Source: a virus. From it: DNA of 34,105 nucleotides. A model generated the notes under the pieces. That model saw only the letters and a list, made by a program, of their open reading frames with translations, was not told the origin of the DNA and did not search any database. Shown piece after piece: positions 1,124 to 25,722 of the stretch. The stretch lies in UHGV virus genome UHGV-0177136; one strand, given 5' to 3'. Position 1 is the stretch's first letter, and each line of letters starts with the position of its first letter. A program made the translations under genes and the position numbers.

Positions 1124-2219
1124 CGGACACCCCGGTCATGTTAAGAGTGATCGCTGTACAGTTTGCCCATTCGTTTTCTGCCACCACCCTCAGTGCCGGT
1201 GTCACCAGTTCGACCTGGTACACCCCGGAAACGGACAACACGCTGATAATCTGGCTGGGAACAATATCGCGCCCCAGCGTGGCGGTACGGGATGCCACCC
1301 AGTTCTGTATGGCGCTGTTAGCGTTGTCCTTTACCAACCTTGCATCCTGATCACGATAGATCGTAATCCTGGCTTCAATGGTGTAATCCACCTGAACAGG
1401 TGTTTTAGCCCGCACGGTATCAGTGAGTGGTCTGACTTTTTCGTCAGAACAGAAACTCTCTACCAGAGTGAGGATACTGCTGTCCGGCAGACCAGTGCTG
1501 AGCAGCGGATACAGCTCGACAGTGCCGGGAGCGGGAGAAAGAACAGCAACGTCGACAATGCCGGGATGCGCCCCCATAGCATGAAAACGGTATGCACCAC
1601 GGCTTCCGGCATTGGTGAATGACTCCGGGGCCAGCCTGATACGCTCCCGGAGCCGGTCATCGTCTTCCTGCTCTGAACCGCCAGAGCTGGCCGTCAGATT
1701 GGTCACCAGCAGGTCAATGTTATCAATCTCATCGAGTAACTGACTGACCTGCGCCGGTTGCCAGCCGTTGCCAGCGGTACCCGGCTCGGTACAGGTGGCC
1801 GTGACATTGACCAGCAGCAATCCGGCCTTCAGCACCACATCTGTATCGGTGGCAAAAATAATACTGTCGGAAGCGCTGACGCGGGTGCCTGCCGGGATCA
1901 GCACATCAATGGCCAGTGCCTCATCCACAGAGAACTGAAGTGTGGTGGTGGCAGGCTGCGCAGCAAGGCGGTATATGCCGACCAGTTCACCGAGGTAATC
2001 AATCATCGGCTCACGGGAAAAAGCGACCAGATTCTGCTTCGCCGCCTCCTGTACTGCCACCCTGACCAGCATTTCGCGATAGGCCCACAGGTCAATCAGC
2101 AGACGTTCAGCCTGTGCCGGGTACAGCGTTTTTCCGGTATCCGCTTCATACTTCGCAATCATTTCTGCCGTGATTTTATCGGCATCGCGTTCAATAAAAT
2201 CGGGTTCTGTCAGCGCCAT
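1116..2219 (-). CDS. baseplate J-like protein
   Basis: 367-aa ORF following the gpW-like gene; order V-W-J-I-fibre is typical of P2/Mu contractile tail baseplates. Confidence 0.75.
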   Translation of the reverse strand: MALTEPDFIERDADKITAEMIAKYEADTGKTLYPAQAERLLIDLWAYREMLVRVAVQEAAKQNLVAFSREPMIDYLGELVGIYRLAAQPATTTLQFSVDEALAIDVLIPAGTRVSASDSIIFATDTDVVLKAGLLLVNVTATCTEPGTAGNGWQPAQVSQLLDEIDNIDLLVTNLTASSGGSEQEDDDRLRERIRLAPESFTNAGSRGAYRFHAMGAHPGIVDVAVLSPAPGTVELYPLLSTGLPDSSILTLVESFCSDEKVRPLTDTVRAKTPVQVDYTIEARITIYRDQDARLVKDNANSAIQNWVASRTATLGRDIVPSQIISVLSVSGVYQVELVTPALRVVAENEWANCTAITLNMTGVSDG

Positions 2220-2557
2220 AGCAGTTCCTGAGTACGGGGTTGTCCGTCTGAACCTTTCCAGCTCACCCGGAGCGTAAGATGTTCGCCGTCGACGGCGGGT
2301 TTAACCGACATAAGCTGGCAGCGGGGTTCCCAGCGCCTGATGGCATCGACGGATTCGCGAACCACATGCGGAATGGCCCGGCCGACAGGCCAGTCGATAT
2401 AAAGGTGCAGATTGCTGCCGAACTCCGGGCGATGCGGGTCGCTGCCGCGGGGAGTCCGCAGGATGATCTGGATGGACTGCCGGATATCATCCAGCCCCCG
2501 GACGATTTCGCCGGGAGCCTGCAGAGCTGGTTGCCAGAATACTGAGGTCGTTTTCAT
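2210..2557 (-). CDS. baseplate protein gpW/gp25-like
   Basis: 115-aa ORF between the spike and J-like genes; size and position typical of the gpW family. Confidence 0.7.
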   Translation of the reverse strand: MKTTSVFWQPALQAPGEIVRGLDDIRQSIQIILRTPRGSDPHRPEFGSNLHLYIDWPVGRAIPHVVRESVDAIRRWEPRCQLMSVKPAVDGEHLTLRVSWKGSDGQPRTQELLWR

Positions 2558-2613
2558 GGAGGCAGTATTGCCCCCGGGAAGTAAGCGCCGATATTAAAGG
2601 CGTTTAAGAAGGT

Positions 2614-3141
2614 TCAATGGGAATGGTGATTAGAGTTCTGACCATCAGCAAATATGTTACCCGTTGCATGGGCGCTTCCGTTGATTTCCAGATCACCATT
2701 GAGTGTCGCGGGGCCGTTGATCGTGGTAACTCCCGTGAGGTCGAGGTTTTTCCCTTTGAGAGAGATATCAGCGGCAACCTCCACCACGATACGCTCAATA
2801 CCTCCTCTGACCGTCAGCGTATGGGTCGCGCGGTTATAACTGAACTCCGCGCCATCAGCGTATTTCGTACCCCGGACGTTTTTATCACTGAACGGCGGTT
2901 TATCGACGTCTGAGTACACCGCGCCCAGAATAACACCATCCTCGCCGTTGGCATCGAGCAGCACCTCAACCTGCTCCCCCACGTCAGGGAGCCAGTAATC
3001 CTTGTTATCCTGGGTATTGCGCTGTAGCACGTTAAGCCAGTTTGTGCGCAGATTATCGCATTCAGGCAGACGAACGCGGGCCTGAACCCTGTCGGCATCA
3101 ACGGCACTGACCGTACCGATCTGACGGGTGACACCAGTCAT
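2614..3141 (-). CDS. baseplate spike protein, gpV-like
   Basis: 175-aa ORF with N-terminal OB-like region and Gly/Asn-rich C-terminus, downstream of the gpD-like gene. Confidence 0.75.
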   Translation of the reverse strand: MTGVTRQIGTVSAVDADRVQARVRLPECDNLRTNWLNVLQRNTQDNKDYWLPDVGEQVEVLLDANGEDGVILGAVYSDVDKPPFSDKNVRGTKYADGAEFSYNRATHTLTVRGGIERIVVEVAADISLKGKNLDLTGVTTINGPATLNGDLEINGSAHATGNIFADGQNSNHHSH

Positions 3142-15745: not shown

Positions 15746-17222
15746 GCAGACGTCCCCAGATATTTGCCACAAAGAGAATGCGGGCCAGCCGTTCCTGCAG
15801 ATCGTCCGTGTTCATCTGAGGGTAGAGCTCCGCCAGTTCGCCCAGCAGCTCAGTCGGGTTAACCCCGTTTTCGACCCGCTTAAACAGAGGTGCCAGGACG
15901 GGTTCCAGCGTGCCATTTAACACACCTCCGTTCATCAGAATGTCCAGCGCGTCGTCAAGCTGCTGCTGAGCCTGAATATCGGCATCAATCGCCTCGGCAA
16001 ATGACAGCGGCAGCATGTTATTCTGGCGTTCCGACGGTGGTGTCTCGTCAATATCGCCGTCCTGCAGCTGGTACTCACGCTTAAAGTACTGCGGGGTCAG
16101 ACGCAGACCCGCCCGGGTGAGTTTTTCGTCGCGGGTGGCGCGGGTGTCATCAATGGTCTCCTGTTCCCACATGGCCCAGACCGGACACGGCACATCGCCG
16201 AAGTTCAGGGTGACCACCGTTCTGATAACCTGATTCACTGCTGCCTGAATGATGTCCGCATCCGCATCGCGGATATCAGCCGTTACCTCCAGCCCGGCCT
16301 GTGCTGAGGCCTTGTTACTGTTCGCTTCCGTGGTCTGATTCTGACCAAGTAATGCAATGGAGATCTCACTGCGTGACAGTGTGATCAGCTCGCGGAATAC
16401 CTCGCTGCTGTCCGCCTTACCATCCGCGGCTTTGAGTTCGATGCTGCTGTCATCGGGGATGGCGGCCACCGCGTCCTCCACCATCTGCTCCATGGAGTCC
16501 AGCAGTTTTTCAATCTCTGCATCATTTGCACCCCTCGGGTGCTTACCGATCACCCACGGGGAGCCAAACTTTTCGGCAAAGCGGAGCCAGAATTTCATCC
16601 CGCCTTTCTTGAAGGCGACCGGCCAGAAGCACATGGACAGGTCCGGGAAACCGTAAGGATTGTCATACGAGGCATCCTGTGCCGGCACCACGAATTTTGA
16701 CGGTGACAGCAGCTCACCCTCCACACCCGCATCACGCGCCCGGAAGCGCAGGCAGTTGTCCGTATCAAACTGAAACCACTCAGGCGGTTTGCCGACAATA
16801 TCCGTCACTGCCCACGCCCTGACCGAACGGCCCCACATGATTTCACAGGGCTGATACCCGTAGAGCACGGCATCACTCATCTCACCGATGATGCGGGACA
16901 GATCCAGATCGTCGAGCATGTCGCGGATGAAACGAAAGACCCGGGCAGAAGCGTGACCGCGCTCCAGTCCACGCTCCAGTGATTTGAGCGCTGCTTTACG
17001 TCTGCGGATACAGCCCCCAACCAGCGGGTCGGTGCGCAGTTCGCGGTAGATACGGATATCCCGTCCCTGAGCCTTGAGAATGGGATCAGGATTGGGCAGA
17101 TACATGCCCAGTCCGTAAAAGTCGATCGCGCGGCTGCGGGAGGCAATCTGCGCGGTCAGTGATTTCTGAGGCTCAGAAAAAGCAACAAATTCATCGGGTG
17201 AAACCCAGATACCCCTCGCCAT
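15726..17222 (-). CDS. portal protein (Mu gp29-like)
   Basis: 498-aa ORF immediately downstream of the large terminase gene. Confidence 0.75.
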   Translation of the reverse strand: MARGIWVSPDEFVAFSEPQKSLTAQIASRSRAIDFYGLGMYLPNPDPILKAQGRDIRIYRELRTDPLVGGCIRRRKAALKSLERGLERGHASARVFRFIRDMLDDLDLSRIIGEMSDAVLYGYQPCEIMWGRSVRAWAVTDIVGKPPEWFQFDTDNCLRFRARDAGVEGELLSPSKFVVPAQDASYDNPYGFPDLSMCFWPVAFKKGGMKFWLRFAEKFGSPWVIGKHPRGANDAEIEKLLDSMEQMVEDAVAAIPDDSSIELKAADGKADSSEVFRELITLSRSEISIALLGQNQTTEANSNKASAQAGLEVTADIRDADADIIQAAVNQVIRTVVTLNFGDVPCPVWAMWEQETIDDTRATRDEKLTRAGLRLTPQYFKREYQLQDGDIDETPPSERQNNMLPLSFAEAIDADIQAQQQLDDALDILMNGGVLNGTLEPVLAPLFKRVENGVNPTELLGELAELYPQMNTDDLQERLARILFVANIWGRLHERDNG

Positions 17223-18817
17223 CAGAATCCCTCCAGCATACGGGCCGCCTGACGACGACGGCGTGAGCTTGCCTTCACCGGCCCTTTGTTAATTTCACGG
17301 CTGGCGAAATACGCCAGCGCCAGTGCGATGGCTGAATCCCCGTGGCGTTTACCACCGTCAGCCTTTGCTTTTGAGCGTTGCTCCGGCACGCGGGGGACAC
17401 CGTTCACCACCTGAACGGCCCGCAGGTCATCCAGTGTGTCTTCATCCTTTGGTAAGTCCACCAGGTTACCGTCTTCCAGTGCAGCTTTGACCGGAGGCAT
17501 ATGCTCCCGGTACCAGCCTTCAGTTGGCATCACCTGCTGAACCCGGCTGGAGCCGTAGCGCTGCATGGCGTATTCAGCCAGATAGGCACCATTACCACGG
17601 GCATCAAACGCTGCACCCAGCAGACCGGGCAGGCCATCCATCAGATACCAGGTGATTTGCTCCTGCTGTCTGAACGGCACGTTACGCAGCTCCAGTACGA
17701 ATGGCACGCGTCGTACCAGGTTCTTCTCCTGCAGCAGGGGATAGTCCACCGACAAATCACCGCTACGGCCAAAGTCGCGCCCCAGGAAAGAGCGGGCATC
17801 AGCGGGGAGTGCCTCCAGCAAGGGTTTCAGATGCTCATCAAGCCAGTCCTGTGTCTCGTGGAAGCGAACCTCATCAGACAGCAGTTCATAACCTTCCTGA
17901 CAGGTCAGACGCAATACCGGCGTATCAGCGGACATGCGGGACTCTATCAGGGCACGGGACAGCCAGGCGCCGCCACCGTTGGCCGGAATACAATCAAGCT
18001 CTTCGGATGCGCCGGCAGCGTAGAATTTGTACACCGACGCCATCCAGGCCTGCTCGGATGCCTCTGACCATTCCTTCCCGGTGCGCAGACAAACGCGCCG
18101 GAACAGCCCCTCAGATACGGCTTCCCGGAAAGTGATGCGATGTACGCTGCCTCCCTGACGTCCGGCACGGATATCCCCGATAAGCGTATTGAACGGATTG
18201 TCGTCACCGTCATGGGTGGAGATAACGCGTACCTTTCCCCCCCAGATAAGCATCGCCAGCGCCGCTTTCAGCAGTTCGTCCAGTTGCTCATGGAACGCCG
18301 CTTCGTCGATAACAATAATACCCTGACGGCCACGCAGGTTAGACGGGCGGCTGGAGAGCGCAACAATACGAAAGCCGGAGTCAGGAAATTTGATGGTGTA
18401 AGTCTTGATGTGTTTGTCGTCGTCGTCCTCTTCCCAGAATCCTTCTTCAATTTCACTGGCCGCATAGTTGAATGCCCGTGCCCACATCGCACACGCCTGA
18501 ATGTATTCGACGGTCATGTCCTGGTTATAAGCGATGTAATACACATTCATCCCGCCTGCTGGCGCAGAAGAGGCGGCGGTCAGTACGTTATCGGATGCCT
18601 CAGCCCATGTAATACCGGTACGACGGCTCTTTTCTATCACCTTAAGCGGAGAGGTGTCTGCCACCCAGCGCTGCTGGTAAGGCAACAGAACGGGAGGGAC
18701 ATCCAGCGCCGAGGTATCAGGCAAAACGGGAGCAAGGTTATTCCTCCCGTCCATGGGACTCATCCCTTCGGGGCCGCCGCCAGCGGCGTTTAAAATCACT
18801 CCGGATGATTTTGTCAT
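17222..18817 (-). CDS. terminase large subunit (Mu gp28-like)
   Basis: 531-aa ORF between small-terminase-like and portal genes. Confidence 0.75.
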   Translation of the reverse strand: MTKSSGVILNAAGGGPEGMSPMDGRNNLAPVLPDTSALDVPPVLLPYQQRWVADTSPLKVIEKSRRTGITWAEASDNVLTAASSAPAGGMNVYYIAYNQDMTVEYIQACAMWARAFNYAASEIEEGFWEEDDDDKHIKTYTIKFPDSGFRIVALSSRPSNLRGRQGIIVIDEAAFHEQLDELLKAALAMLIWGGKVRVISTHDGDDNPFNTLIGDIRAGRQGGSVHRITFREAVSEGLFRRVCLRTGKEWSEASEQAWMASVYKFYAAGASEELDCIPANGGGAWLSRALIESRMSADTPVLRLTCQEGYELLSDEVRFHETQDWLDEHLKPLLEALPADARSFLGRDFGRSGDLSVDYPLLQEKNLVRRVPFVLELRNVPFRQQEQITWYLMDGLPGLLGAAFDARGNGAYLAEYAMQRYGSSRVQQVMPTEGWYREHMPPVKAALEDGNLVDLPKDEDTLDDLRAVQVVNGVPRVPEQRSKAKADGGKRHGDSAIALALAYFASREINKGPVKASSRRRRQAARMLEGF

Positions 18818-19359
18818 GTGGCAATCCCCAGAATCTCGCGACGAAGCGCCTGTACTGCGTCGCTTGACAGTCCCCCCTTACGGGCAATTTTCTCGGCGTT
18901 GCTGGCTGCCTGCTGCGCTCTGGCCCGTACTTCAGACTGGAACTTTTTGAGGTTGACGGACGCGCGGGACAGCGTAGCCACATTCTTCGCCACCTTCGAC
19001 AGCAGGGCCACGCGTTCTTTAGGATCGACTTCGCCTTCTTCCGCCTCCTGCAACTGGACAATACTCTCGAACAGCTCGGTCTGAATAAGGGCTATCACAG
19101 CCTCCGAACGCGCATCCTGATCGTCTGCTGCGCCTTCGGTCAGCATGCGGGCCGCTTCTGTTGCCGCACGGATAGCACCATAGCGGCGCTCAATCTTCTG
19201 TCCATAGCGATGGATAGCGGATTTGCTGATAACGTACCCCCGCTCACGCAGCAGGGACTCCAGCTCGTTATACCCGCTGAAGCCGGATTCAGTCAGCGCC
19301 CGTTCAAGCCAGCGGCGCACGTCTTCCGGCAGCTTTTCTATTGTGCTGCGTCTGGCCAT
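18814..19359 (-). CDS. putative terminase small subunit (Mu gp27 / DUF3486-like)
   Basis: 181-aa ORF with N-terminal HTH-like segment, directly upstream of the large terminase. Confidence 0.6.
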   Translation of the reverse strand: MARRSTIEKLPEDVRRWLERALTESGFSGYNELESLLRERGYVISKSAIHRYGQKIERRYGAIRAATEAARMLTEGAADDQDARSEAVIALIQTELFESIVQLQEAEEGEVDPKERVALLSKVAKNVATLSRASVNLKKFQSEVRARAQQAASNAEKIARKGGLSSDAVQALRREILGIAT

Positions 19360-19670
19360 TATTCACTCCAGTACTTTTCCGGGCGGGCAATACCCGGACC
19401 ACATTCCACGGTGTATTCCACCAGGTCTACGCCGAGGCGGGTCAGGTCAGCAAACCAGTCGCCAGAAGGTTTTTTCTCCAGATCAACCATTTTACGGTCA
19501 GCCAGATAATCCAGTTCGCGGCGCAGTTCCAGCGGTGTGGTGTCCGGGTAGATGGCACGGGACACATCCAGCAGCAGCGTCTCGCTGGCGGTGTAAGGGC
19601 GGGTCTTGTTCAGGGCAACCAGCAGACTCCAGCGCAGGGATTCGCGGCGTACCCGGGTAATATCGACCAT
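19359..19670 (-). CDS. hypothetical protein (Mu gp26-like by position)
   Basis: 103-aa ORF between lysis cassette and terminase genes. Confidence 0.45.
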   Translation of the reverse strand: MVDITRVRRESLRWSLLVALNKTRPYTASETLLLDVSRAIYPDTTPLELRRELDYLADRKMVDLEKKPSGDWFADLTRLGVDLVEYTVECGPGIARPEKYWSE

Positions 19671-19996
19671 TATTGACCTCCGGTATTGCGGTACTGCTGT
19701 ACCACTTCCAGTTTGTTATAAAGCGCGTCCAGTTTGGCCTCAATGACTGTCTGGCCACGGATATAATCCTCTCGACGGACATAATTCAGCGGTAAATCCG
19801 CTTTAAATCGCATAAATTCTTTTTCCAGCTCGCCCCAGTTGGAGGCGGACTGTTGCAGGGCCTGTTCAAGGGAGGCGAATCGTGCCGCCTGGCGTTCTTC
19901 TGTTTTACTGAACAACCATTTGGCGAGCCCTCCCACAAACCCCATGAAGGTGAGCAGAAAACTCACTACCGTCCAGAATTCAACCTGCAGTGTCAT
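19670..19996 (-). CDS. hypothetical membrane protein (Mu gp25-like by position)
   Basis: 108-aa ORF with one N-terminal hydrophobic helix (FWTVVSFLLTFMGFVGGLA) then coiled-coil-like region. Confidence 0.45.
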   Translation of the reverse strand: MTLQVEFWTVVSFLLTFMGFVGGLAKWLFSKTEERQAARFASLEQALQQSASNWGELEKEFMRFKADLPLNYVRREDYIRGQTVIEAKLDALYNKLEVVQQYRNTGGQ

Positions 19997-20643
19997 TTCT
20001 GTAATCCTTCCCGTTCATCCAGTAACGCGTTTATCTGGTTCCGCCAGCGACGACATTGTCCTGCGTTGTCGATGATGTTGGCGAGAACGTCACGCTGGGA
20101 GACACCCGAATCGCGTAACCGGGTGTCAGTGGTTTCAGGTTGCCCGGTCGCTGTGCCAGAGCGGGTGCCAGCGGCGGCAACTGAGTCTGAATGACCGGTG
20201 TCGACGGATGCATTGTCATATCCGAGTGCGGCGTTGTACTGGCGCACGAAACCGCGAGTAAACACGCACTCAATGGGATGGCTCTTACCTTTTTCATCAA
20301 TCCAGCGCTGTGTGACATCGTTAATTTGCCCCTGTAGTTGTTTATTCCGGCTCTCCAGTTGAGCAATCTGCTCAAGATAACCGGCTTCAGCCCGCTGCCC
20401 GGCGGCCACCTGCTCCTGATACCGTCTGGCCCAGGCCCGCAGCGCAGCATTCTCAAGCGTTGCCTGCTCCGTTTTGTACGCGTCAAATGCTGACTGCAAC
20501 TGACTGAGCGCGGTATCACCGTCACGCTTTGCAGAGTCATGACCACTTCTGTATCCCATGGCATACAGGCCGACCAGAAAGGCATTGATAAGAATGGCCA
20601 GCAGAATGCCGCGCCACGGCAGCTTTTTAACCAGATGCCACAC
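19993..20643 (-). CDS. putative i-spanin (Rz-like)
   Basis: N-terminal TM (ILLAILINAFLVGLYAM) followed by coiled-coil region, right after endolysin. Start set to GTG 20643 (GGAGG 9 nt upstream); alternative ATGs at 20733 and 20745. Confidence 0.5.
   Translation of the reverse strand: MWHLVKKLPWRGILLAILINAFLVGLYAMGYRSGHDSAKRDGDTALSQLQSAFDAYKTEQATLENAALRAWARRYQEQVAAGQRAEAGYLEQIAQLESRNKQLQGQINDVTQRWIDEKGKSHPIECVFTRGFVRQYNAALGYDNASVDTGHSDSVAAAGTRSGTATGQPETTDTRLRDSGVSQRDVLANIIDNAGQCRRWRNQINALLDEREGLQK
20031..20297 (-). CDS. putative o-spanin lipoprotein (Rz1-like), embedded in a different frame of the i-spanin gene
   Basis: 88-codon ORF from ATG 20297: MKKVRAIPLSACLLAVSC with lipobox-like AVSC, followed by Pro-rich sequence. 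Confidence 0.45.
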   Translation of the reverse strand: MKKVRAIPLSACLLAVSCASTTPHSDMTMHPSTPVIQTQLPPLAPALAQRPGNLKPLTPGYAIRVSPSVTFSPTSSTTQDNVVAGGTR

Positions 20644-21361
20644 AACTGCTGCCTCCCCATGTGAGATATCGCGGTGCCAGTTCGCGCAGGATGCGCTGCG
20701 GATAATGGCGGTTCTCCCGCCAGCTGGCCGCATTGCGTCCGGCATTCACCGTGGCGACATGTCCGAACCAGCGGGTGCTGTCCAGACCTTTCTGTGATGC
20801 AAGCCGCCTGTCCCGTTGTACCCAGCCCAGACCACCGTTATAGCCCGACAGTGTCATGGCCATACGCTCGCAGTCGTTGGCGGCGCTGACGCGCTGCCAC
20901 AGCCAGCGGTCATAGCTGACCAGCGCCCGGATAGCCCATGCAGGATTAAACGGCTCACGATTGCTCAGCATCGGTATCAACTGGCTTATCCAGTCGGCAG
21001 TGGCAGGCATGAACTGCGCCAGTCCCTGAGCGCCAGCCGGCGAGACCGCATCAGGTCGCCAGCCGCTTTCCTGATGCAGTTGCGCGGCGAAATCGGCCAC
21101 CGGCGCAGACAGTCCCCATTCAAGCCGGGCATTACGGATCACATCATCGCGATACTGCAGCGCAGCCTGCGGAGGCTGCGCTGCGCGGGCCTGACTGAAG
21201 AAGCCGCCACACCAGAGCAGCCAGACAATCACCAGGTTGCCAGCAAGCTGCCACCAGAAGCTGTATTTATCGTTACGTGGTTCTCCGTGTCTGATGGCGG
21301 TTACGCCCAGACCAAAGGCGAACAGAATAATGAGGGTGATTTGAGGCCAGTTCATGGTCAC
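20627..21361 (-). CDS. endolysin, lytic transglycosylase (SLT domain) with N-terminal hydrophobic segment
   Basis: 244 aa; SLT-like motifs (QESGW, AQGLAQFMP); N-terminal TM-like helix suggests a signal-anchor-release type. Confidence 0.75.
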   Translation of the reverse strand: MTMNWPQITLIILFAFGLGVTAIRHGEPRNDKYSFWWQLAGNLVIVWLLWCGGFFSQARAAQPPQAALQYRDDVIRNARLEWGLSAPVADFAAQLHQESGWRPDAVSPAGAQGLAQFMPATADWISQLIPMLSNREPFNPAWAIRALVSYDRWLWQRVSAANDCERMAMTLSGYNGGLGWVQRDRRLASQKGLDSTRWFGHVATVNAGRNAASWRENRHYPQRILRELAPRYLTWGGSSCVASG

Positions 21362-21708
21362 AGTCCTGTTGCCACAGCCAGACAGACCGCTGCAACAATC
21401 AGTGCACGGCGGATTAACGCAGCAGAAAATACAAGGTGAAGGCCGGTCTGCACAGGGAAACGCCCTTCAGCCATCAGTCTGTCGTCATGTTTCAGGTACT
21501 GACCGGGACGGGCTTTGGGGAAGAGCGAACGGTCAAGCCAGTAACCCAGCACTGCTGCCAGCGTGATGAGTGCCAGCTTGTAGATCACAACAGGCAACTG
21601 CTGTGGCGAGACCAGAGCGATGATGCCCAGCAACAGCACTGAGGTCAGCAGCCAGCCGCTGAGGCGAGGTTTTTTAACAGGGGGAATGAATTTTTTCAGG
21701 TTTTTCAT
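21358..21708 (-). CDS. putative holin / lysis membrane protein
   Basis: First gene of the late cluster; likely start ATG 21708 (MKNLKKF..., RBS GAGGAGA) rather than GTG 21741; three hydrophobic helices. Confidence 0.5.
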   Translation of the reverse strand: MKNLKKFIPPVKKPRLSGWLLTSVLLLGIIALVSPQQLPVVIYKLALITLAAVLGYWLDRSLFPKARPGQYLKHDDRLMAEGRFPVQTGLHLVFSAALIRRALIVAAVCLAVATGL

Positions 21709-21727
21709 GTGTGTCTCCTCGTTTGGT

Positions 21728-21766
21728 GGAGACAGCATCACAAATGTGGCGGGATACGGATTTTAA
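21728..21766 (-). promoter_or_regulatory. late-promoter-like motif upstream of holin gene: TTAAAATC-N23-CTGTCTCC (minus-strand sense)
   Basis: Minus-sense sequence TTAAAATCCGTATCCCGCCACATTTGTGATGCTGTCTCC; the two 8-mers and their spacing recur upstream of the gpI-like gene. Confidence 0.45.
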
Positions 21767-21822
21767 ACAGCGTTAATAGTGAAGATGTAAACGTGCACTG
21801 CATGATGGCTTTGAAAGAACGA

Positions 21823-21850
21823 CCAGCCCGGTACCCGAACACCGGGCTGG
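21823..21850 (-). terminator. GC-rich hairpin (10-bp stem, 8-nt loop) followed on the minus strand by a T-rich tract; candidate intrinsic terminator/insulator upstream of the late operon
   Basis: CCAGCCCGGT / ACCGGGCTGG perfect inverted repeat; minus-sense downstream sequence TCGTTCTTTC. Confidence 0.4.
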
Positions 21851-21955
21851 CCATCGCCCCACAGGAATGCGCTGTGAGCCGACCAAGGTTCAGTCAGTCT
21901 CGCGCGACCACACTAGCCTGGCATATTTTTTATAATTGTAAAAGGCTTACAGATT

Positions 21956-22726
21956 ATGAAAATGCAGACATTACCCATCGTTCCATGGATTGGTGGCAAA
22001 CGCCGCCTTGCAAAACACATCCTGCCGCTGTTTCCGGCGCATGAATGTTATGTGGAGCCGTTTTGTGGGGCAGCAGCGCTCTATTTTCTTAAGGTACCCG
22101 GCAAGATCGAAGTCATTAATGATATCAACGGTGAGCTGGTGAACCTGTATCGGGTGGTAAAACATCATCTGGAAGAATTTGTACGCCAGTTCAAATGGGC
22201 GCTGGTCAGCCGGCAGATCTACAAATGGCTGCAGATCACCCCGGAAGAAACACTGACGGATATCCAGCGTGCAGCACGGTTCTACTACCTTCAGAAGCAG
22301 GCGTTTGGGGGCAAGGTGGCGGAGCACAGCTTTGGTACCTCCACCATATCCCCGCCACGCTTCAACCTGCTGCGTATTGAAGAAGAACTGTCAGCGGCAC
22401 ACCTGCGGCTTTCCAGAACGGTCATAGAACACATGGACTGGCAACAGTGCATAGAACGATATGATCGCCCGCATACGTTGTTCTACTGTGACCCTCCATA
22501 CTGGGGAACGGAAGGTTATGGTGTGGAGTTCGGACTAGAAAATTATGATCATATGGCAGATTTAGCACGCAGGATCAAAGGGAAGATGATTATATCGGTG
22601 AACGATATCCCGGAAATGCGGCAGGCATTCAACGGTCTAAATATTCAGTCGGTTGATATCAGCTACAACCTCAAGATCACTGGCAAATCCAGTCGCAAGA
22701 AGGAACTCATTATCCTCAACTTTTGA
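21956..22726 (+). CDS. DNA adenine methyltransferase, Dam/D12 family (no adjacent restriction enzyme gene seen)
   Basis: 256 aa; N-terminal WIGGKRRL SAM-binding-type motif and DPPY catalytic motif; TATAAT at 21931..21936 upstream. Confidence 0.85.
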   Translation: MKMQTLPIVPWIGGKRRLAKHILPLFPAHECYVEPFCGAAALYFLKVPGKIEVINDINGELVNLYRVVKHHLEEFVRQFKWALVSRQIYKWLQITPEETLTDIQRAARFYYLQKQAFGGKVAEHSFGTSTISPPRFNLLRIEEELSAAHLRLSRTVIEHMDWQQCIERYDRPHTLFYCDPPYWGTEGYGVEFGLENYDHMADLARRIKGKMIISVNDIPEMRQAFNGLNIQSVDISYNLKITGKSSRKKELIILNF

Positions 22727-23921
22727 CCGAATAGTAAGACTTCATGCAGTGAATCAAGTACTGCATGAAGTCAAGGGCTGGTTTTGTGTACCAAAAATAA
22801 ACAGTGATAGCGGTAATAATTCCCATAACTAGAACACCACGTATAATCCAGAACGTACGTTTCTGCGTGTCTAGTCGCGCAGAAATACTGCTAAATACAC
22901 CAGCCACGTCATCTTTAATGAAGGAATATTCCTTATTAATCTGTTTTTCTTTGTATTCAATTTCTTCGCCTAAGGCCTTTATAGATTGCATCTGGTTCGA
23001 AAGTGCCAGCCAGATTAACGTTGCAGCAAAAATGCATCCCAGAAGAATTATTGTGTTTGTTATCCCTTGGCCTGACCATTTCGTAGCCACTTTGAATTGG
23101 GTAGCTACGATAACAGAGGCAACAGGAATGCCAAGTATATGGTTCTGGATATCTGAAAACGCTTTGTGGATTTTACCCATTTCTTCGACTTTTGCAGCAC
23201 GCAGTTGATCCATTACTTTGTCATAAGAGAATCCAGAAGAGTAGATACGATACCCTTTCAGAAACTTTTCATGCAGACGCTGAATATTGTCCAGTAAATA
23301 AGCGAATACTAGAGGTGAATCAATTCCATCACTAACTGCTTGAATACTTTCAATCAGAATATCTAGCTTCTGATCCTTATGGGTATCATCATTGAAACAA
23401 GCTATAAGGTTATCAAGATACTCCCTTTGCAAATTTTGTACATTTTCTGCAGCGAAGTGCGGTAATAGCTTGATAACTTCTTTTTTCAGAAAAACTAACT
23501 GACAAGTTGAGTTATCAAAGTAGGCCGCGGCCTCTTTTAGCAGATTAACGAACTCGAGAATCTTCCGGTAGTTGCTGATGAAAACGGGGATATCTTCATC
23601 ATCATTACGAAATTTTGTTTCTAGGATGAAGTAATTAGCTGGCTCAAGGCACTGATGCTTTGGAGCATTTAGCAATTTTTCATGGGTGGAAAACACAAGT
23701 CCCAGTCCACTCCGTGGTGACGTCACACGTAGGATGATCGTGTTACCTGGAGCGATAGTGCCTGTATCAATAGAAAGACCATATTCACGAGGATCATCAA
23801 GCAAAGTATCAACCAGATCACAATCGGACTGATCTAAGAGCAACAGCGAACCGACACGAAACCCCTCTTGGAATTCCATACGACGATACAGAGCTGTCAG
23901 CATCTCAAATGAAATCGCCAC
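22716..23921 (-). CDS. protein of unknown function with two C-terminal transmembrane helices; candidate effector of a two-gene module
   Basis: 401 aa; start GTG 23921 two nt after the upstream stop, with GAGG inside the upstream gene end; TM helices at ITNTIILLGCIFAATLIWLAL and FWIIRGVLVMGIITAITVYFWY; N-terminal ~275 aa unrecognised; visibly AT-richer than flanking phage genes. Confidence 0.6.
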   Translation of the reverse strand: MAISFEMLTALYRRMEFQEGFRVGSLLLLDQSDCDLVDTLLDDPREYGLSIDTGTIAPGNTIILRVTSPRSGLGLVFSTHEKLLNAPKHQCLEPANYFILETKFRNDDEDIPVFISNYRKILEFVNLLKEAAAYFDNSTCQLVFLKKEVIKLLPHFAAENVQNLQREYLDNLIACFNDDTHKDQKLDILIESIQAVSDGIDSPLVFAYLLDNIQRLHEKFLKGYRIYSSGFSYDKVMDQLRAAKVEEMGKIHKAFSDIQNHILGIPVASVIVATQFKVATKWSGQGITNTIILLGCIFAATLIWLALSNQMQSIKALGEEIEYKEKQINKEYSFIKDDVAGVFSSISARLDTQKRTFWIIRGVLVMGIITAITVYFWYTKPALDFMQYLIHCMKSYYSVKS

Positions 23922-23923
23922 GA

Positions 23924-24931
23924 TTAAACCTCAGTCATCCACATTTCCCTAAATTCTTCAGGTACATTACGTAGGGTGATAATATTTGTTTCCGGATCAT
24001 AATCAATATAGCCTTCAGTTTTCCCTTCCCGGTCAAACTTAAGTTCCCAATATTTAGACTTGCCTTTAAAAGATACCAGAGCCCGAATGACTCGACCATC
24101 AGGAACGAAGCCATCCGATAACTCCAACTCTTCAGCAGCAAGTTTACCAGATAACTCCTCGGGAGCCTGGGGCCAAATGGCATTAACAAGGGTTTCAAGA
24201 CTAAGTGGTTCACCAGCCTTACTTAGTGCATGTAAGTGTTCAAACGCACTCTTAAGAAATGCATCTTTTTCAGCGCCGTCAAGTCCTTTCTCTGCCGCAA
24301 ATGCTTTTAAAACGTCACGTAACTTTTCAGACTCTCGTTTGGCGATTAAGACATCATTACAGCCTAGGAACTGTTTAAAATAGTTTGAAACATTACCTTG
24401 CCCCTTAAGAAAACTGATATAGCGCTCTGCGCCACTTTCCCACGCGGTTAAGTCAATGCGCCCAGCCATACGCAGCTTAGCAATATCAAGATAGGTACTA
24501 TCTTGGATGTTAAAATCATCTGTGACAGTGGACCCAATGGTAGCGCTTACAATAGCTATCAACAGGTGTTCATTGTGTCCTATCACGATATTTGCAAAAA
24601 GAACATAACCACCAGTAGCCATGTTTTCTCGCTGAGAACGTTCCGTCAGGTGATGCATCATTCGGCAGGAACTTTGGTAGAAATCATCAACACCTTCGAG
24701 AAAGTCCCCAGCCATTCGTTCCATAGGATAGTTATCCGTATCGCCTTCAAAATAGCCATAACCTTTACCTGTGCGTCCTGCATATTTTGCACAAATATCG
24801 TTTATAAGGCGCTGAGAGGCTTCAGTAACTAGACCTTCTTCAGGACTCAATCTCTCAGAAGCGTCTCCATTTTGTTGTTTGTCTAAAATGTGAACTACAA
24901 CGTGTTTAACTTCAATGGTCTGCTCAGACAT
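23924..24931 (-). CDS. NdpA/YejK-like (NA37 family) nucleoid-associated DNA-binding protein homolog
   Basis: 335 aa, the length I recall for E. coli YejK; segments such as GGYVLFANI, YLDIAKLRMAGRIDLTAWESGAERYISFLKG and the C-terminal YIDYDPETNIITL match my recollection of YejK ([54 protein letters not shown]). RBS AAGGTGG upstream. Confidence 0.6.
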   Translation of the reverse strand: MSEQTIEVKHVVVHILDKQQNGDASERLSPEEGLVTEASQRLINDICAKYAGRTGKGYGYFEGDTDNYPMERMAGDFLEGVDDFYQSSCRMMHHLTERSQRENMATGGYVLFANIVIGHNEHLLIAIVSATIGSTVTDDFNIQDSTYLDIAKLRMAGRIDLTAWESGAERYISFLKGQGNVSNYFKQFLGCNDVLIAKRESEKLRDVLKAFAAEKGLDGAEKDAFLKSAFEHLHALSKAGEPLSLETLVNAIWPQAPEELSGKLAAEELELSDGFVPDGRVIRALVSFKGKSKYWELKFDREGKTEGYIDYDPETNIITLRNVPEEFREMWMTEV

Positions 24932-25001: not shown

Positions 25002-25409
25002 TTAACCCACATTTTTTAACCGCTCAATCGTTGCGGATAATTCCTTCAGTTGTTTTTCCATCTCAATCACACGCTGTTTTTCTTCAGCGCCTCGCATGAG
25101 ATCTCGCCGAACCTCAGGATCTAACTGGTTTAGAAGTTCAAGCATTTTAAGGTCTGACGGGCTGAATTGATGTTGTGTTGGTACAGCAACAATTTCTTTA
25201 GATGGAATATGTTCTTTACCGGTAAGTAGCCAATCGATCGATACACCCAAATGGGTACTTAGCGCAACAAGAGCCTCTGCGTTTGGTTCTCTCTCTCCAC
25301 GCAAATAGTTTTGAAGTGAGCGATATGGAATTTTTGATAAGTCAGATAATGCCTTTATTGTCATGCCATTAGCATCCATCACTTCACGCAATCTCTCTTT
25401 TGTACTCAT
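25002..25409 (-). CDS. prophage repressor, HTH XRE-type
   Basis: Likely start ATG 25409 (MSTKERLREVMDANGMTIKALSDLSKIPYRSLQNYLRGEREPN...; track start 25505 is a TTG inside the operator region); divergent from the ner-like gene. Confidence 0.7.
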   Translation of the reverse strand: MSTKERLREVMDANGMTIKALSDLSKIPYRSLQNYLRGEREPNAEALVALSTHLGVSIDWLLTGKEHIPSKEIVAVPTQHQFSPSDLKMLELLNQLDPEVRRDLMRGAEEKQRVIEMEKQLKELSATIERLKNVG

Positions 25410-25425
25410 TTGAACATATCTCAAT

Positions 25426-25453
25426 TTGACACACTCATTTGGGTGTGTACAAT
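25426..25453 (+). promoter_or_regulatory. sigma70-like early promoter (TTGACA-16 nt-TACAAT) with an ACACAC/GTGTGT inverted repeat in the spacer
   Basis: TTGACA at 25426..25431 and TACAAT at 25448..25453; inverted repeat 25429..25434 / 25443..25448; about 45 nt upstream of the ner-like ATG. Confidence 0.5.
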
Positions 25454-25491
25454 AGACCCAATAGAGTACATCATAACCTAACAAGAACACG

Positions 25492-25722
25492 GTGCATATG
25501 AACAAACAACAAGTTCGGGCACGGCTGGTTGAACGAGGCAGTAGCTTGCGCCAGTTCGCGCTTAACGCGGGCTATGAACCACGAACAGTCACCCAGGCAG
25601 TCAGTCGCTGGGCTGGTAAAAGTGAACTACCTCGCGGTCGTTTGACTTATCGGATTTTGCGAGATCTATCGGTTGCAATAGGTAAAGAAGTTACCCCCGG
25701 TATCCTTAAGGAGGCGTCATGA
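25492..25722 (+). CDS. ner: Ner-like DNA-binding regulator
   Basis: Track start is GTG 25492; probable ATG at 25498 (MNKQQVRARLVERGSSLRQFALNAGY...); small HTH protein divergent from the repressor and first gene of the early operon, as in Mu. Confidence 0.6.
   Translation: MHMNKQQVRARLVERGSSLRQFALNAGYEPRTVTQAVSRWAGKSELPRGRLTYRILRDLSVAIGKEVTPGILKEAS

Follow-up and report, generated by a model that had tools for sequence, protein, structure and literature searches.

The lysis cassette on the minus strand of UHGV-0177136, a 34,105-nucleotide stretch of viral DNA (the window), encodes an endolysin precursor of 242 amino acids (27.3 kDa, positions 21355..20627) in which a module of two transmembrane domains (TMDs) is fused to an SLT-type lytic transglycosylase through a junction of the signal peptidase I type. 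The module is predicted to act as an export leader that is cleaved off to release a soluble periplasmic enzyme, and this reading was given a probability of roughly 0.6. As judged from its sequence, the window is a Bcepmuvirus (BcepMu-like, Mu-like transposable) prophage of Escherichia coli with the lysis cassette in its late operon. The cassette is of an already described kind, with a holin, an SLT endolysin and an embedded spanin pair, and some novelty lies in one point, the fusion of a two-helix leader to the enzyme through a junction of the signal-peptidase type; no description of a two-TMD endolysin leader was found in the papers searched.

The leader module comprises residues 1-55 of the endolysin (21191..21355, minus strand), as delimited by hydropathy, composition and similarity to the family PHROG 5479. 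TMD1 spans approximately residues 3-21 (nt 21293-21349) and TMD2 approximately residues 33-53 (nt 21197-21259), the latter ending in a GGFF motif. The two are separated by the basic loop RHGEPRNDKYS, and no charged or basic residue was found ahead of TMD1. A preliminary description of this DNA had placed a single hydrophobic helix at the N-terminus and had proposed an endolysin of the signal-anchor-release (SAR) type; a hydrophobic export region is indeed present, but it consists of two helices. Residues of the LIVFMW group made up 0.58 of TMD1 and 0.63 of TMD2, with Gly/Ala/Ser/Thr at 0.32 and 0.21, respectively, and the membrane anchor of the i-spanin encoded in the same window had 0.58 and 0.26. 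The verified SAR domain of Mu gp22 had Gly/Ala/Ser/Thr at 0.53 and LIVFMW at 0.32, while the sequences which we take to be the SAR domains of P1 Lyz and R21 gave 0.53 and 0.42, and 0.63 and 0.37, respectively. Both endolysin helices are of stable-TMD composition, unlike these known SAR domains. Only composition separated the two classes; hydrophobicity summed on the Hessa scale showed no separation of SAR domains from stable TMDs.

Residues 1-54 of the endolysin covered profile positions 1-53 of 53 in PHROG 5479 at 8.5e-14, a family of 53-amino-acid proteins whose function is listed as unknown in the database. An exhaustive search of 1.84 billion cluster representatives with the endolysin N-terminus showed 494 representatives that match the two-TMD module at E<=1e-3, and the best 148 matches included 120 stand-alone proteins of 50-66 amino acids and 21 tandem duplicates (about 110 amino acids). 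A word-indexed homologue search with the 68-amino-acid N-terminus produced 14 matches, which were mostly truncated or partial and thus uninformative. The motifs WPQI, HGEP(R/K) and a C-terminal GGFF characterise the family, for which there was no Pfam or NCBIfam model. Members comprise the module of the window (21191-21355, minus strand), the relatives P0015-P0162, and L006 3613-3771, L093 2001-2171, L094 1995-2165 and L095 2001-2165. Lys and Arg were concentrated in the loop (2.44; N-tail 0.10, C-tail 0.39), so an N-out/C-out arrangement is predicted, which is the topology needed for a periplasmic C-terminal fusion partner. The stand-alone homologues end 1-5 residues after GGFF, without a signal-peptide c-region and without A-x-A. 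The leader, as its match to this family shows, arose by in-frame fusion with a small PHROG 5479-family membrane protein, and it ties a large uncharacterised family of membrane proteins of about 55 amino acids to endolysin export.

The possibility that the stand-alone proteins are dedicated lysis-cassette genes was rejected by their location in the three phages inspected (Xanthomonas phage FoX5, Burkholderia phage Mica and Rhizobium phage RHph_TM3_3_14B), where they lie among early/replication genes or small genes of unknown function. One of them, the 56-amino-acid FoX5 gp66 (L093 2001-2171), is annotated as a "lytic murein transglycosylase" without having a catalytic domain, a label evidently carried over from the fusion proteins.

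Downstream of the module, 101 fused homologues from Escherichia, Salmonella, Pantoea, Serratia, Pectobacterium, Dickeya, Arsenophonus and Morganella showed GGFF followed by S-Q-A-x-A-A-(Q/E)-P-P, which reads S-Q-A-R-A|A-Q-P-P in the window. Position -3 was Ala in 95 of the 101 and position -1 was Ala in 99, while position -2 was hypervariable (N43, R17, H17, A9, S4, D4, C3, Q3). A free -2 between small, invariant residues at -3 and -1 is the classical signature of signal peptidase I. The predicted site in the window is A56-R57-A58 (21182..21190, minus strand), and host signal peptidase I would most likely cleave between A58 and A59. Cleavage there would give a 184-amino-acid enzyme of 20.6 kDa starting with AQPP, together with a membrane peptide of 58 amino acids and 6.7 kDa (calculated masses); the predicted mature periplasmic SLT domain (20630..21181, minus strand) was recognised by its Slt70 motifs and invariant residues.

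What precedes the junction differs among relatives. Pseudomonas phage B3 ORF25, like the window endolysin, has the two-TMD leader in fused form, in its case via A-K-A|D (...GGFFSSAKA|DEIPRAAEQYRR, with a DEIP start). In Pseudomonas phage D14F, a close relative of B3, the two-TMD unit is a separate gene whose 52-amino-acid product terminates in GGFFG-stop, and the endolysin encoded after it begins with a signal or lipobox-like peptide of its own, MKRLLTLGLLGLLTACQPAFA|ADRIPTAAEQYRR (ADRIP start). Short classical signal peptides stand at the same A(Q/E)PP junction in L079, L080, P0276, P0281 and BcepMu gp22; P0272 has an unrelated two-helix leader at this junction, and P0216 and P0274 are one-helix deletion derivatives. 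The presence of short signal peptides or of a separate gene at the junction in close relatives suggests that the mature domain works untethered. The lysin of Burkholderia phage KS10, a homologue, has a cleavable signal peptide as predicted by SignalP (PMC2628397).

The enzyme itself had been described as an SLT-type lytic transglycosylase, and the family matches bear this out. Pfam SLT (PF01464) was matched at 6.8e-15 (55.1 bits against a cut-off of 21.3) and the endolysin family PHROG 669 at 2.5e-70, while a match to E. coli Slt70 (8.6e-6) aligned HQE96SGW, GLAQFMP and GYNGG to Slt70 residues 461-560. The catalytic Glu96 lies in a QES motif (codon GAA at 21068-21070). E96, C162 and C238 were invariant in 36 aligned homologues, and the invariant Cys162 and Cys238 of the catalytic domain fit the predicted oxidising, periplasmic location. 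The open reading frame (ORF) given earlier for the endolysin, 21361..20627, is present as a GTG-started frame of 244 amino acids and is in frame with the ATG at 21355. The ATG is the likelier start because AGGA stands 8 nt upstream of it, PGAP uses it, and stand-alone homologues of the leader begin M-x-WPQI.

In the mechanism proposed, the Holin_2-3 holin would accumulate in the inner membrane and lysis would be timed by collapse of the membrane potential, with the SLT endolysin already outside the cytoplasm when the holin fires. The two-TMD hairpin would insert via Sec/YidC in an N-out/loop-in/C-out orientation, so that the SLT domain is translocated; TMD2 would act as the signal-peptide core, and a cut after Ala58 would free the soluble periplasmic enzyme, with the two-helix peptide of 58 residues remaining membrane-bound. 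Until holin-driven depolarisation the exported enzyme would be harmless, as was shown for Lys44 and other exported endolysins, the concept being that the membrane potential restrains a secreted endolysin (PMC6116005). The i-spanin in the inner membrane and the o-spanin, as an outer-membrane lipoprotein, would together span the periplasm, with disruption of the outer membrane as the result.

Several points weigh against cleavage and release of the enzyme. TMD2, at about 21 residues, is longer than a typical cleavable signal core, which speaks for a signal anchor and might impede cleavage, and S-Q-A-x-A-A-(Q/E)-P-P might be conserved as a structural linker and not as a protease site. We know of no restraint demonstrated in Gram-negative hosts for a constitutively secreted transglycosylase of this family. 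Because of the relatedness among the sequences compared, the counts do not represent independent events, and the AlphaFold2 model, computed on the 36-sequence alignment and used for helix positions only, was of low confidence (mean pLDDT, the predicted local distance difference test, 64.6) and may add secondary structure only. If the leader were never cut, the SLT domain would be held at the outer face of the inner membrane by a flexible AAQPP linker and activated in place by the holin, like the membrane-bound lytic transglycosylases of the host. With such a stable tether agree the stable-TMD-like composition of both helices, the length of TMD2, the Pro-rich segment past the junction, which could serve as the linker, and the presence of membrane-bound lytic transglycosylases among the nearest named families of the endolysin (NCBIfam MltF, 1.6e-12). 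A tether is unlikely, however, as the invariant Ala residues at -3 and -1 with a hypervariable -2 are hard to explain as a mere linker, close relatives have short classical signals or the separate-gene form at the junction, and the stand-alone two-TMD family lacks the c-region.

The SAR endolysin proposed in the preliminary description would likewise be uncleaved, its anchor tethering an inactive enzyme to the energised membrane and slipping out on depolarisation. SAR transglycosylases have been reported in Pseudomonas Mu-like siphophages (PMC9239132). In favour of this model, the endolysin of the window has its own N-terminal membrane-targeting region with a small holin alongside, and Gly, Asn and Gln occur in TMD2, which also includes a GG pair. 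With two TMDs, however, both helices would have to leave the bilayer. Their Gly/Ala/Ser/Thr fraction is 0.21-0.32, versus 0.53-0.63 in the SAR domains, and their LIVFMW fraction (0.58-0.63 versus 0.32-0.42) is that of the stable i-spanin anchor. The lack of basic residues N-terminal to TMD1, the conserved A-x-A site, which argues for processing, and the existence of the two-TMD unit as hundreds of stand-alone membrane proteins with nothing to release also make a SAR endolysin improbable, clearly more so than the stable tether. A cleavable signal peptide or a stable anchor, not a SAR domain, is the better-supported outcome, and the endolysin should not be filed as SAR, a point relevant to the mining of prophages for SAR/pinholin systems and to expression of the enzyme.

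Given a cleaved export leader, the released peptide may have a role of its own. It is conceivable, although we hold this only tentatively, that a protein of the PHROG 5479 type, ordinarily encoded by a gene of its own in the early regions of many phages, was recruited as leader to make a two-in-one precursor, from which signal peptidase I would yield the soluble endolysin and a 58-residue membrane peptide that perhaps has a share in the timing of lysis, as an antiholin or a partner of the holin, for instance. If true, this would be a mode of export and regulation distinct from those of cytoplasmic, SAR and simple signal-peptide endolysins, and it would be widespread among the Mu-like prophages of Enterobacterales and the B3-like phages of Pseudomonas. 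The natural fused, split and replaced variants offer a cheap experimental handle on the role of the two-TMD family and on how the enzyme is silenced before the holin fires.

Immediately downstream, the i-spanin (Rz-like) gene (GTG 20643..19993, minus strand, 216 amino acids) is preceded by GGGGAGG and overlaps the 3' end of the endolysin gene by 17 nt. Its product matched the Rz-like spanin family PHROG 1403 at 6.8e-92 and is homologous to B3 ORF27 and BcepMu gp23. It has a basic N-tail, MWHLVKKLPWR, and a TMD at approximately residues 12-31 (Kyte-Doolittle value 2.10); from the basic N-tail and the positive-inside rule we infer an N-in, C-out topology. Two cysteines, Cys126, which is invariant, and Cys197, would be periplasmic.

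A second ORF of 88 codons lies in frame +1 of the i-spanin gene (20297..20031, minus strand), and its designation as a putative Rz1-like o-spanin embedded in the Rz-like i-spanin gene is well supported. The preliminary description had given this ORF, with coordinates and a quoted peptide that proved exact, and had pointed to a lipobox-like AVSC, a Pro-rich body and the Rz/Rz1 embedded arrangement, all of which hold. The ORF starts MKKVRAIPLSACLLAVSC|ASTTP and has an L-A-V-S-C lipobox (LLAVSC fits the PROSITE-type pattern) with Cys18 encoded by TGC at 20244-20246; the +2 residue is Ala, so sorting to the outer membrane is expected. The mature product of 71 amino acids contains 11 Pro (15.5%) and 19 Ser/Thr (27%). 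The ORF spans 0.53-0.94 of the i-spanin length, the usual position for embedded spanins in the reference geometry (PMC6139136).

Among synonymous shuffles of the i-spanin gene, 56% contained a +1 ORF no shorter than 88 codons, so ORF length was rejected as evidence for the o-spanin; a lipobox ORF arose in 3.6%. By itself the ORF is thus weak evidence, and the weight comes from comparison, which covered 85 loci (80 related viral loci at i-spanin identities of 40-100%, to which four phage loci and the window were added). A lipobox ORF with start, basic n-region, hydrophobic core and Cys was found in frame +1 in 84 of them (down to 40% i-spanin identity) and in frame +2, which holds 12-19 stops, in none of the 85. 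The sole exception, the related prophage L075 (3001-3594), has Tyr in place of the lipobox Cys, and both of its spanin frames diverge and end early after approximately i-spanin residue 191. The gp25-like gene of L075 lies about 2 kb further downstream than usual, and this locus looks like a decaying cassette, perhaps with an insertion. The +2 residue was A, S, G or V and never Asp in 52 unique sequences, and the motif RP..L.PLTPGYA persists to BcepMu and B3. The +1 translation was at least as conserved as the i-spanin (for example 92-94% versus 82%, and 50% versus 42%). Synonymous differences in the i-spanin gene had a median of 0.17 inside the overlap versus 0.25 outside and were lower inside in 38 of 39 divergent pairs, which are related to one another, so that this constraint is a tendency and not a probability.

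The alternative that the 88-codon ORF is a non-coding by-product of i-spanin composition, with the outer membrane disrupted by other means, is very hard to credit. The gene is GC-rich, with frame +1 open by chance as often as the shuffles indicate; the lipobox lies across ECVFTRGF, the best conserved motif of the i-spanin, and is in part bound to be conserved for that reason; and the 88-amino-acid product matched no Pfam or PHROG family. A further point against the o-spanin is that its mature form in the window clade has no periplasmic Cys, unlike lambda Rz1 (one Cys was present in 6 of 52 unique relatives). A by-product would, however, hardly keep its start, signal and lipobox Cys in all but one locus beside a frame +2 full of stops, nor would it show the synonymous constraint, the conserved motif and the avoidance of Asp at +2, and the homologous embedded genes of the known pairs in BcepMu and B3 have already been annotated or catalogued.

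The cassette as a whole, which had been recognised as such beforehand, was confirmed by family matches and by a gene order equal to BcepMu gp21-gp28, an order also common to KP12, PhiKM and B3. The minus-strand genes from 21708 to 19359 form a tight string in which genes overlap or abut; no terminator-like site was found on the coding (minus) strand within 19300-22100, and a promoter/terminator scan gave nothing above chance. The first gene of the string (ATG 21708..21358, minus strand, start preceded by GAGGAG) has a 116-amino-acid product which is a predicted holin of the Holin_2-3 family. It matched Pfam Holin_2-3 (PF13272) at 4.7e-41 (139.8 bits against a cut-off of 27) and the holin family PHROG 1528 at 2.9e-54, has 52% identity to BcepMu gp21, contains three hydrophobic segments, stands beside the endolysin and is named "putative holin" by PGAP.

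Downstream of the spanins lies a gene for a gp25-like membrane protein (19996..19670, minus strand, 108 amino acids), translationally coupled to the i-spanin gene through an ATGA overlap with its stop. The product matched PHROG 462 at 1.6e-36 and has an N-terminal TMD and a helical tail; its identity to the BcepMu and Ralstonia phage homologues was 52-58% (52% to BcepMu), and its conservation exceeds that of the spanins. The gene adjoins the spanins also in BcepMu, B3, D14F and the Ralstonia phage, and it is labelled "Lysis protein" in D14F. The gp25-like protein may be a lysis accessory, its membership of the cassette being judged by position. Mu gp25 is a releasin located where the gp25-like gene sits here (PMC9239132). 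The two proteins are alike in size class, N-terminal TMD, cytoplasmic helical domain and position between the spanins and gp26/TerS, although the analogy is positional only. Membership of the Mu gp25 releasin family (DUF2730) was rejected, with an hhalign probability of 0.3%, and Pfam DUF2730 was matched by 0 of 9 gp25-like family members. The remaining genes of the series on the minus strand code for a gp26-like protein (19670..19359, 103 amino acids, PHROG 436), the small terminase TerS (19359..18814, 181 amino acids) and the large terminase TerL (18817..17222, 531 amino acids).

The 2.7-kb region demonstrated 97% identity to Escherichia phage PhiKM (genus Bcepmuvirus), 89.5% to Klebsiella phage KP12 and 86% to phage Phi06_2974 B. 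It was present in 638 of 5426 complete E. coli genomes (about 12%) and was almost always chromosomal. As a lysis cassette it matters little, being of a known type that is carried by about 12% of complete E. coli genomes.

Inspection of two RefSeq (PGAP) records and of the PhiKM and KP12 records showed that the holin, the SLT protein and the i-spanin are annotated and the embedded o-spanin never is. RefSeq, PhiKM and KP12 often mislabel the i-spanin as "lipoprotein" or "putative lipoprotein", while in some genomes it goes under "lysis system spanin subunit", and the PHROG 462/BcepMu gp25 protein, a TMD protein without a lipobox, is also called "lipoprotein". The real lipoprotein gene, that of the predicted o-spanin, is left unannotated in these records, and annotation pipelines could be corrected in this respect.

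Four genes stand between the lysis cassette and the early region: a D12-class Dam methylase (21956-22726, plus strand), divergent from the holin; a 401-amino-acid protein, hydrophobic in its C-terminal region, that matched no Pfam family (22716-23921, minus strand); a 335-amino-acid NA37/YejK-like nucleoid-associated protein (1e-80; 23924-24931, minus strand); and a CI-type helix-turn-helix repressor (25002-25505, minus strand). In PhiKM, other genes separate the holin from the methylase, which points to this region as variable cargo.

Among named systems, BcepMu gp21-gp25 (NC_005882) is like the window in having a Holin_2-3 holin, an SLT endolysin, an i-spanin with a +1 proline-rich Rz1 and a TMD protein, followed by gp26, TerS and TerL. 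The cassette type was reportedly described for BcepMu by Summer et al. in 2004. Identities to BcepMu were 61% for the endolysin catalytic domain (gp22) and 57% for the gp26-like protein, beside the 52% of the holin and of the gp25-like protein, and only about 27-32% for the i-spanin. BcepMu gp23 is annotated as an Rz-like spanin and gp24 as "Rz1, out of frame, embedded proline-rich protein". Unlike the window endolysin, BcepMu gp22 has one short Ala-rich signal (MRVLIAFVVALLGAAAPVAA|QVP) without the two-TMD module, and the BcepMu o-spanin has an extra periplasmic Cys, which the window o-spanin lacks. ORF24-ORF28 of Pseudomonas phage B3 (Beetrevirus) likewise code for a holin, an SLT endolysin, a PHROG 1403 i-spanin in whose gene a lipobox ORF is embedded, and a gp25-like protein; B3 differs by an i-spanin identity of about 30% and by a further small cationic ORF that separates the endolysin from Rz. 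The spanins of BcepMu/phiE255 and of the B3 group were catalogued in 2018 as embedded two-component spanins (PMC6139136).

The extra ORF of the B3-like phages (L006 2787-2990, minus strand; L090 1757-1969, plus strand), absent from the window, is hydrophobic at its N-terminus and very basic at its C-terminus (...ARAKRKARKYRRQRGRHGHP), and it is annotated as "Transglycosilase" in D14F without such a domain. Ralstonia phage YO107_2 (L007, about 2150-2760, minus strand) has the same holin, SLT endolysin and gp25-like protein together with an unrelated overlapped spanin pair (o-spanin MRSPRLPAAVLIAASMLTAC...), which suggests that the spanin module is exchanged independently of the rest of the cassette. 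With lambda Rz/Rz1 the pair of the window shares an o-spanin that starts near mid-gene, ends just before the stop and is Pro-rich, and a position directly downstream of the endolysin. There is no sequence similarity to the lambda pair, however; the o-spanin here is longer in its mature form (71 amino acids) and has no periplasmic Cys, and it is the i-spanin here that has C126 and C197.

The SAR endolysins P1 Lyz, phage 21 R and Mu gp22 are like the endolysin of the window in holin-independent, Sec-dependent export (predicted here) by an N-terminal hydrophobic region. In them a single Gly/Ala-rich TMD of weak hydrophobicity stays uncleaved and is preceded by basic residues, whereas the endolysin here has two strongly hydrophobic TMDs and A-x-A, and their T4-lysozyme-like muramidase fold differs from the SLT domain. 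Lys44 of oenophage fOg44, a secreted endolysin, has in common with the prediction made here Sec export, signal-peptidase processing and lysis timing set by the holin through depolarisation; the KS10 lysin, for its part, has 54% identity to BcepMu gp22. Lys44 has a cleavable signal peptide, as the KS10 lysin is predicted to have, while the leader of the window endolysin is a two-TMD hairpin derived from an independent small protein, and its predicted cleavage would free a 58-amino-acid membrane peptide in addition to the enzyme.

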